From a virus (Duplodnaviria > Heunggongvirae > Uroviricota > Caudoviricetes), in IMG/VR virus record IMGVR_UViG_3300014522_000024: DNA of 8,612 bases. One strand, written 5' to 3'. Within the stretch, counting starts at the first letter, position 1; every line of letters begins with the position of its first letter. The translations under genes and the position numbers were made by a program. Below the pieces are notes generated by a model. It did not search any database and was not told where the DNA came from. It saw only the letters and a list, made by a program, of their open reading frames with translations. Positions 8,330-8,612 of the stretch are shown one piece after another.

Positions 8330-8594
8330 TACCTACAACAATGATATTTTTGTTAATATGCGTCTAAATGAATAACAATATATAGATAAAAATACCAGTA
8401 AGAAGAAAAACCCCAAAACTTTAAACCGCAAAACAAAACCTTATCAGGTAATTTAACCACAGGGCATTAATGCAACAAAATAATAATTCAAACCTAAACA
8501 AACCATAAACAGTTAAACAATATACAATTGACTCATCAAGTTAGATATAAAAAATACATACTCAATCATTAAAACGATTGAATGGAGACCTTTT
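8330..8594 (+). promoter_or_regulatory. A-rich leader and promoter region of the ompT-like gene
   Basis: About 265 bp of strongly A/T-rich, non-coding sequence (e.g. AAACCGCAAAACAAAACC, CAAACCTAAACAAACCATAAACAG). TTGACT at 8539-8544 is a possible -35. GGAGA Shine-Dalgarno at 8584-8588. Exact promoter elements were not resolved. Confidence 0.3.
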
Positions 8595-8612
8595 ATGCGG
8601 GCGAAACTTCTG
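8595..8612 (+). CDS. ompT: 5' end (6 codons, MRAKLL) of an outer-membrane protease OmpT-like gene; truncated by the window edge
   Basis: ATG 8595 with GGAGA Shine-Dalgarno 6 nt upstream. MRAKLL equals the start of the OmpT signal peptide as I recall it (MRAKLLGIVLTTPIA...). Only 18 nt are visible, so assignment rests on the N-terminal match plus context. Confidence 0.55.

Follow-up and report, generated by a model that had tools for sequence, protein, structure and literature searches.

That ompT of Escherichia coli K-12 lies in the DLP12 prophage is textbook knowledge, and cleavage by the OmpT protease degrades cationic antimicrobial peptides. This work concerns an 8,612-nucleotide stretch of Caudoviricetes DNA (IMG/VR record IMGVR_UViG_3300014522_000024; its whole length is referred to here as the window), which carries a Rac-type integration module and ends six codons into an ompT-type gene. 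Our best explanation of the locus as a whole, to which we assign a probability of roughly 0.9, is that a Rac-family lambdoid phage of E. coli carries, as accessory cargo, the ompT cassette to which this gene start belongs. An earlier annotation of the window, made from its letters alone (the first-pass annotation), had likewise proposed ompT as a lambdoid moron linked to a Rac-type int/att module.

In K-12, ompT (b0565) has the same geometry as in the present locus: it is the last gene at the int-distal, tail-fiber end of DLP12, 423 bp from the annotated right boundary, and is transcribed inward. The first-pass annotation called this end att-distal, but the K-12 gene is att-proximal there just as it is in the window. 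The two loci are almost the same over the ∼90 bp of promoter and leader nearest the gene, and their upstream regions share 77% identity over 274 bp (window positions 8341 to 8612; E value of 3e-56). Nucleotides (nt) 1 to 30 of the K-12 open reading frame (ORF), of which the window holds the first 18, are the same as in DLL7555 and KMi025, where the ORF continues beyond the window. DLP12 differs in having an argU-linked integrase rather than the IntR/ttcA pair, in lacking an alpha/beta hydrolase partner gene (appY and envY flank ompT instead), and in its upstream sequence, which beyond about 255 bp is unrelated to that of the window.

The same element is present in avian pathogenic E. coli (APEC) O1 (NC_008563), where sequence matching window 7473 to 8612 at 98.8% runs on into an omptin gene, an alpha/beta hydrolase gene, cdtCBA, and a tail fiber gene, and the opposite end of that prophage is 99.8% identical to window 1 to 7805. 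The difference lies in the int sequence beside ompT, which in APEC O1 is a 231-bp 3′ fragment; the full int is located ∼52 kb away, next to ttcA. In strain 28C, according to the citing account, a lambdoid prophage carries an OmpT-like ORF (rorf2) and a hydrolase ORF (rorf1) alongside cdt-IV (Toth et al. 2009, Infect Immun 77:492, as cited in PMC4606577). Among phages, Nesevirus ev243 (NC_049955) shows the same order of integrase, 482 bp of intervening sequence, ompT, alpha/beta hydrolase, and convergent tail-fiber genes. However, its integrase and IntR share just 22% identity over 242 residues, which implies a different att specificity; its early region is of the lambda Red type rather than RecET; and its omptin is the 317-amino-acid (aa), K-12-like allele. 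Phage records carrying a full omptin gene number 13, and the relatives of ev243 among them are 2G7b, PhiR26_1, PhiR29_1, Turner, and Kati. Finally, O157:H7 holds the same ompT-plus-hydrolase block and shares the distal upstream region from window position 8318 (84% identity), but there ompT is flanked by genes for an acetyltransferase and a helix-turn-helix regulator (annotated in PhiR29_1 as Xre family with a cupin domain) and sits beside an icd fragment at a prophage remnant, with no Rac attP. Rac-linked ompT is already known from the APEC O1 genome and from rorf2 beside cdt-IV, an int-att-ompT order is known from public phage records, and the arrangement is an ordinary one. The first-pass annotation had described it as a different mosaic combination; it does differ from K-12 but, being in the published APEC O1 genome, is not new.

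The features at the right end of the window are as follows.

8318 to 8594, plus strand: A-rich (27% guanine plus cytosine [GC]) ompT upstream region, the left end of a mobile ompT cassette; homology begins at 8318 with PhiR29_1 and O157:H7 and at 8341 with K-12 and ev243.
8528 to 8555, plus strand: promoter-like TTGACT-16-AAAAAT, a putative promoter whose two hexamers are invariant in seven ompT contexts.
8584 to 8588, plus strand: Shine-Dalgarno sequence GGAGA, invariant across the aligned ompT loci.
8595 to 8612, plus strand: first six codons (MRAKLL) of an omptin gene, truncated at 8612; the rest of the ORF was read in DLL7555, KMi025, and APEC O1.

The final 18 nt read ATG CGG GCG AAA CTT CTG, and the window stops after codon 6. 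A 6-nt spacer (CCTTTT) separates the Shine-Dalgarno sequence from the ATG at 8595, and the 265-bp leader at 8330 to 8594 is 47.9% A and 26.8% GC, compared to 44.4% GC for the whole window. The first-pass description of an MRAKLL start behind GGAGA and a ∼265-bp A-rich leader thus agrees with both sequence and composition. Because only six codons fall within the window, the identity of the gene rests on leader homology and on near-identical loci in which the ORF continues. In addition to the K-12 match given above, window 8318 to 8612 is 84% identical over 300 bp to the omptin gene region of PhiR29_1 (E value of 2e-87). The first-pass annotation had suggested a BLASTN comparison of 7807 to 8594 with the K-12 ompT upstream region; homology was found from 8341 onward, while 7807 to 8340 gave none.

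Seven ompT loci were aligned (the window, KMi025, PhiR29_1, O157:H7, K-12, CFT073, and a ColV-type plasmid). The last ∼90 bp, which include the −35 and −10 hexamers, the Shine-Dalgarno sequence, and the first 18 nt of the ORF, are nearly invariant, with window 8528 to 8612 nearly identical to the other six loci. Both hexamers (TTGACT at 8528 to 8533 and AAAAAT at 8550 to 8555) are unchanged throughout, and a single spacer position, 8537, varies. The first 18 nt of the ORF are the same in K-12, CFT073, O157:H7, phages PhiR29_1 and ev243, and the ColV-type plasmid copy; nt 1 to 30 in DLL7555 and KMi025 equal those of K-12 ompT, with APEC O1 differing at nt 27 only. Published work shows that the small RNAs OmrA and OmrB pair with nt 12 to 20 of the ompT ORF (PMC2588501), of which nt 12 to 18 are present in the window. 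Farther upstream, the aligned loci split into lineage-specific versions, consistent with a report that places differences in ompT expression in the distal promoter (PMC6854850). Judged by these homologies, which are far beyond chance, the gene start is of the ompT type, and a chance ORF is not the explanation.

The continuation of the ORF was surveyed in 5,426 complete E. coli genomes. Window 7705 to 8612 is matched in full by 13 of them (98.5 to 99.8% identity) and from 7763 onward by 7 more, and all 20 annotate an omptin at this point; the ttcA-linked copy of ompT is rare (20/5,426). A larger group of 1,333 genomes matches ≥80% of the window in one place, mostly through the Rac early-left and intR part. 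At the loci matching window 7473 to 8612 (DLL7555 at 99.7% and APEC O1 at 98.8%), the ORF continues as an intact 316-aa omptin, so that the full ORF with catalytic Asp and His residues that the first-pass annotation expected downstream is found in loci 98.8 to 99.7% identical to the window. The DLL7555 protein is 91% identical to K-12 OmpT and matches Pfam PF01278 over profile positions 1 to 283 of 283 (E value of 2e-128), NCBIfam NF008222 at 677 bits (cutoff of 537), and the solved OmpT structure (PDB entry 1I78) with an E value of 2e-185. Its substitutions relative to K-12 cluster at residues ∼96 to 114 and 233 to 235. The motifs GGNMxDxDW and DNDEHY are found in the continuing omptins, and catalytic residues D103 and D105 (in GGNMIDRDW) and D229 and H231 (in DNDEHY) are kept in both DLL7555 and APEC O1. 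KMi025 carries the 317-aa, K-12-like allele behind the same leader, with equivalent catalytic residues. By proxy, through these near-identical loci, a full-length omptin domain and its catalytic residues can be provisionally assigned to the gene of the window, which would place its product among the omptin outer-membrane proteases (Pfam PF01278, MEROPS A26).

It is very improbable, in our estimate, that in the source genome the ORF has instead decayed to an omptin pseudogene, such that no protease is made. In favor of this reading, the plasmid copy of the ompT-plus-hydrolase cassette, located beside IS91 and iroN, has an internal stop, and the neighboring ykgJ-like gene in the window is itself a pseudogene. 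On the other hand, all three chromosomal continuations that were read (DLL7555, APEC O1, and KMi025) are uninterrupted, with a single terminal stop and intact catalytic motifs, and the promoter-like element, Shine-Dalgarno sequence, and start codon of the window are unaltered.

The position of ompT was read from lysogens. KMi025, a simple lysogen, has the order uspF, attL, ompT, alpha/beta hydrolase, tail fiber. In DLL7555, window 1 to 7805 adjoins ttcA, and window 7473 to 8612 is found ∼52 kb upstream in the same orientation. This prophage spans 52.7 kb, is near-complete and lambdoid (replication, lysis, terminase, capsid, tail, J, Lom, and tail-fiber genes), and has ompT at one end and intR-attR-ttcA at the other. 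The uspF-attL-ompT order, together with intR at the opposite end, places ompT on the phage side of the core, inside the att boundaries; the gene lies within attL and attR of a prophage, as expected for a moron. At the int-distal end, ompT comes first among the prophage genes. Its transcription runs inward and away from attP, which the first-pass annotation had thought plausible for a lambdoid moron, and converges on the late operon. In the attP form, ompT is sense-downstream of int and oriented opposite to the late operon. Base composition also sets the cassette apart: the leader (27% GC), the omptin ORF (42.8%), and the hydrolase gene (42.4%) lie below the prophage body (48.0%), as is typical of a moron.

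OmpT is usually described as a chromosomal E. coli protein, and the canonical ompT locus beside nfrA-ybcH looks chromosomal in uropathogenic E. coli (UPEC) (PMC6854850). One might accordingly regard the gene as a host gene that merely abuts the prophage rather than as phage cargo. We consider this extremely improbable, since simple lysogens have ompT on the phage side of attL, between core and tail-fiber genes, with uspF as the host flank; Rac-type prophages at the same site without ompT carry ykgJ at this position (ynaE/ynaM in K-12); and the same cassette is present in the genomes of isolated phages.

The left boundary of the cassette falls within the remnant of another gene.

8149 to 8305, plus strand: remnant of a ykgJ-family (cysteine-cluster) gene, with ATG changed to ATA, a frameshift, and truncation after about residue 55 of 109, as read from tblastn and nucleotide alignment.

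The RM10740-type Rac prophage has an intact 109-aa YkgJ-family gene at the same position after the P′ arm, and tblastn with its protein matches the window in two frames (E values of 1e-8 and 5e-7). Homology to the ykgJ-carrying Rac-type prophage stops at ∼8305, and homology to ompT-bearing phages begins at 8318. The Rac prophages of RM10740 and K-12 are without the ompT cassette, and the boundary at ∼8305 to 8318 within the ykgJ-like gene supplies the insertion boundary expected of a moron. These alignments show a presence/absence polymorphism among Rac-type phages, in which the ompT cassette has taken the place of the 3′ half of the ykgJ-like gene. The first-pass annotation had placed ompT immediately next to the att region. 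The gene lies 790 bp from the att core, however, with the P′ arm and the ykgJ-like pseudogene remnant intervening.

Beyond the window, PhiR29_1 and the KMi025 Rac-type prophage have in common a 3.26-kb block of ompT plus hydrolase at 95% identity, while K-12 shares with this block only ompT, 256 bp upstream, and 46 bp downstream. The alpha/beta hydrolase gene accompanies ompT in Rac-type, icd-type, and ev243-type phages and on the plasmid, but not in K-12 DLP12. In DLL7555 (locus L001, positions 8025 to 9509, just downstream of the omptin gene), it encodes a predicted alpha/beta hydrolase of 494 aa whose C-terminal domain is TAP-like (PF00561 and PF08386). Overall, ompT occupies the int-distal, tail-fiber end of lambdoid prophages with at least four integration modules: ttcA/IntR, argU (DLP12 in K-12 and a stripped-down version in CFT073), the icd-linked remnant, and the ev243 type. 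A survey of flanking integrases had been suggested by the first-pass annotation, and its outcome agrees with the view that the Rac/IntR linkage is distinct from that in K-12. Each of the three comparisons suggested there thus supports the first-pass interpretation.

The left part of the window, positions 1 to 7704, is a Rac early-left region comprising sieB, kilR, recE, recT, ralR with the RalA small RNA, xisR, and intR. The integration module consists of the following features.

6252 to 6467, plus strand: xisR (ydaQ), the excisionase of the Rac-type integration module, annotated in the identical DLL7555 stretch (0 mismatches over window 1 to 7679).
6469 to 7704, plus strand: intR, a Rac-type tyrosine integrase of 411 aa reading toward attP, identified from its ORF, the intR annotation, and Pfam domains Arm-DNA-bind_2 and Phage_integrase.
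7700 to 7966, no strand assigned: attP region (P arm, core, and P′ arm), delimited by alignment of attP, attL, and attR forms and by K-12 Rac homology.
7756 to 7809, plus strand: phage-borne replacement 5′ end of ttcA (MQENQQITKKEQYNLNK*), joined to host ttcA upon integration; ttcA starts at this ATG in the DLL7555 attR, in agreement with the alignment and PMC4632033.
7780 to 7805, no strand assigned: att core of 26 bp, corresponding to the attP annotated in phage Rac-SA53 (KU052037).
7908 to 7958, no strand assigned: three TGCCCC(A/T)TTT repeats on the P′ arm, found by repeat search; probable arm-type Int sites.

The limits of the core follow from attR homology, which stops at 7805, and from KMi025 attL identity, which is unbroken from 7780. 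Window 7763 to 7966 is 92% identical to the attL side of K-12 Rac (ttcC′ and P′ arm). A fourth copy of the TGCCCC(A/T)TTT repeat is found on the P arm at 7726 to 7735, so that TGCCCCATTT repeats occur on both att arms. The phage-borne ttcA 5′ end has been described previously (Liu 2015, PMC4632033). The integration module is of the Rac type by sequence, as it has an IntR-type integrase and XisR, shares its core with the attP annotated for Rac, and includes a ttcA 5′ end borne by the phage. The window is an attP-type junction in which xisR, intR, the Rac core at 7780 to 7805, the P′ arm, the ykgJ-like pseudogene, and the ompT cassette follow one another.

At window 7771 to 7790, two alleles of the phage-borne ttcA 5′ end were observed: MQENQQITKKEQ is present in the window and at a junction in O157:H7 F6294, and MQENQKNTKKEI is present in the attR of DLL7555 and in Rac-SA53. 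Three mismatches between these alleles fall within the annotated 26-bp core, which fits the imperfect match between attL and attR reported for Rac (PMC4632033).

Several observations weigh against the reading of ompT as phage cargo. Full-length int joined to attP and ompT occurs in 0 of the 5,426 complete E. coli genomes, a result that includes a whole-window megablast. An exact-pattern scan for the ykgJ/ompT junction returned nothing from IMG/VR and the GTDB species representatives, and a scan of JGI metagenomes returned four contigs, none with a full int: one has the int fragment from 7473, one is of the attL form, and two have too little flank to classify. The promoter-like hexamers are conserved, and a promoter scan of the region stands at chance level, with 3 sites against 3.2 expected in shuffled sequence; the accompanying terminator scan of the region called none. 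Lastly, an intact gene in the source genome is presumed by proxy, with 18 nt of the ORF within the window, and the internal stop in the plasmid copy counts here as well.

The contiguity of int, attP, and ompT may have another origin than a free circular phage attP. It could be the junction of a tandem array, a circle or duplication formed by homologous recombination between 333-bp repeats, or a short-read assembly join across a 200-bp identical stretch; we give these, taken together, an even chance. Over positions 1 to 7679, no mismatch separates the window from the right (int-attR) end of the prophage in DLL7555, and over 469 to 7679 none separates it from five further assemblies, APEC O1 among them. 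From 7680 onward, by contrast, the sequence is that of the left junction (int fragment-attP-ompT), with 10 differences from the right copy, so that the switch from right to left copy falls within 7480 to 7679, the 200 bp identical in both. A site-specific crossover at the core would keep the right-copy P arm, which is not the pattern seen. Furthermore, full int-attP junctions are present in 10 of the 5,426 genomes, and the one examined, that of O157:H7 F6294 (locus L009, positions 3765 to 6667), is a tandem Rac-family array at ttcA, in which full intR and an attP-type junction are followed by the tail-fiber end of a second prophage with a frameshifted nleC. Among long contigs encoding the exact IntR protein, only int-attR-ttcA contexts were found. 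The last 75 nt of the window (8538 to 8612) are an exact repeat of a CFT073-type chromosomal ompT start, which fits a contig broken at a repeat and may imply a second ompT copy in the source genome. Nevertheless, a phage with a left-copy P arm would give the same sequence, so the window reads alike under the three sub-cases and under a genuine attP, and the left-copy P-arm type does exist at the F6294 junction. Under any of the three sub-cases, ompT is still prophage cargo, although in the chromosome it would be located ∼52 kb from the functional int.

In DLL7555, APEC O1, and one gut metagenome contig, the int sequence beside ompT is the 231-bp 3′ fragment, starting at window 7473. Direct repeats of 333 bp bound the prophage on both sides in DLL7555 and APEC O1, each consisting of this int 3′ fragment and att (locus L001, positions 5769 to 6101, and locus L002, positions 11473 to 11805). 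Upstream of the left repeat, part of a DUF1627 gene and a metal ABC permease gene with a frameshift suggest that the first of two tandem prophages has been deleted.

Under the cargo reading, window 8318 to 8612 would be the left end of a self-contained ompT cassette, with an A-rich upstream region, a sigma-70-type promoter, a short leader, a Shine-Dalgarno sequence, and a signal-peptide start, and the lambdoid phage carrying this cassette as a moron would be a member of the Rac family with ttcA as its integration site. The circular attP order would be xisR, intR, attP, ykgJ-like remnant, and ompT, followed, as seen in near-identical genomes, by the alpha/beta hydrolase gene, the cdt-IV toxin operon in some strains, and the tail-fiber genes. 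Conservation and orientation suggest that ompT would be transcribed from its own promoter in the lysogen. From what is known of OmpT, the product would be exported via a 20-residue signal peptide, inserted in the outer membrane as a 10-stranded barrel, and predicted to cleave cationic peptides and proteins between paired basic residues, in a lipopolysaccharide-dependent reaction, by means of Asp83/Asp85 and Asp210/His212 (numbered as in mature OmpT, structure 1I78). The lysogen would thus probably gain a second omptin besides the chromosomal one.

A Rac-family prophage of this kind would give extraintestinal pathogenic E. coli and APEC-type strains a second omptin allele, accompanied in some by the CDT-IV genotoxin and a secreted-hydrolase gene. 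The ompT-plus-hydrolase block occupies one and the same place in lambdoid phages that use at least four different integration modules, and it also occurs on plasmids; it clearly exemplifies a virulence-linked moron that moves between phage backbones. PCR (polymerase chain reaction) typing of APEC and UPEC, in which ompT is a marker, can be inflated or confused by prophage copies. These consequences are modest and leave current understanding unchanged.

The boundary between ykgJ homology and the ompT cassette is occupied exactly by the 12-mer AAACTGAACAAG (8305 to 8316), which agrees with the right end of the att core, AACCTGAACAAG (7795 to 7806), in 11 of its 12 positions. The cassette boundaries of K-12, O157, and PhiR29_1 lack this motif, and its likeness to the core may reflect chance in A-rich DNA or the footprint of an att-related acquisition. 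We regard as long shots two proposals, one that AAACTGAACAAG is the footprint of Int-mediated cassette capture at a secondary, core-like site and the other that ompT is switched on by read-through. In the second proposal, induction or the formation of a hybrid junction could switch the protease on, with ompT sense-downstream of the early-left operon and int. If true, Int-mediated capture at a core-like site would amount to a site-specific route for moron acquisition. Capture of ompT by aberrant excision of the lambda gal/bio type was rejected as a simple model, as the P′ arm that separates ompT from the core is complete and has its arm-type repeats.

The ykgJ remnant also contains a predicted hairpin.

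8231 to 8263, plus strand: perfect 12-bp stem with a 9-nt loop, folding at −24.3 kcal/mol (z score of −3.4) and lacking a T run.

The 5′ arm of this hairpin coincides with extra bases relative to the intact RM10740 ykgJ. The hairpin is possibly a barrier to read-through from int. An equivalent of the lambda sib/tI element was rejected, as the hairpin lies in a decayed coding region 527 bp past the int stop and has no T run. Elsewhere in the window, the sole match in an Rfam search was the RalA antitoxin small RNA (RF02694, 220.7 bits, full length), which spans the ralR/DUF1187 region on the minus strand at 5970 to 6148.
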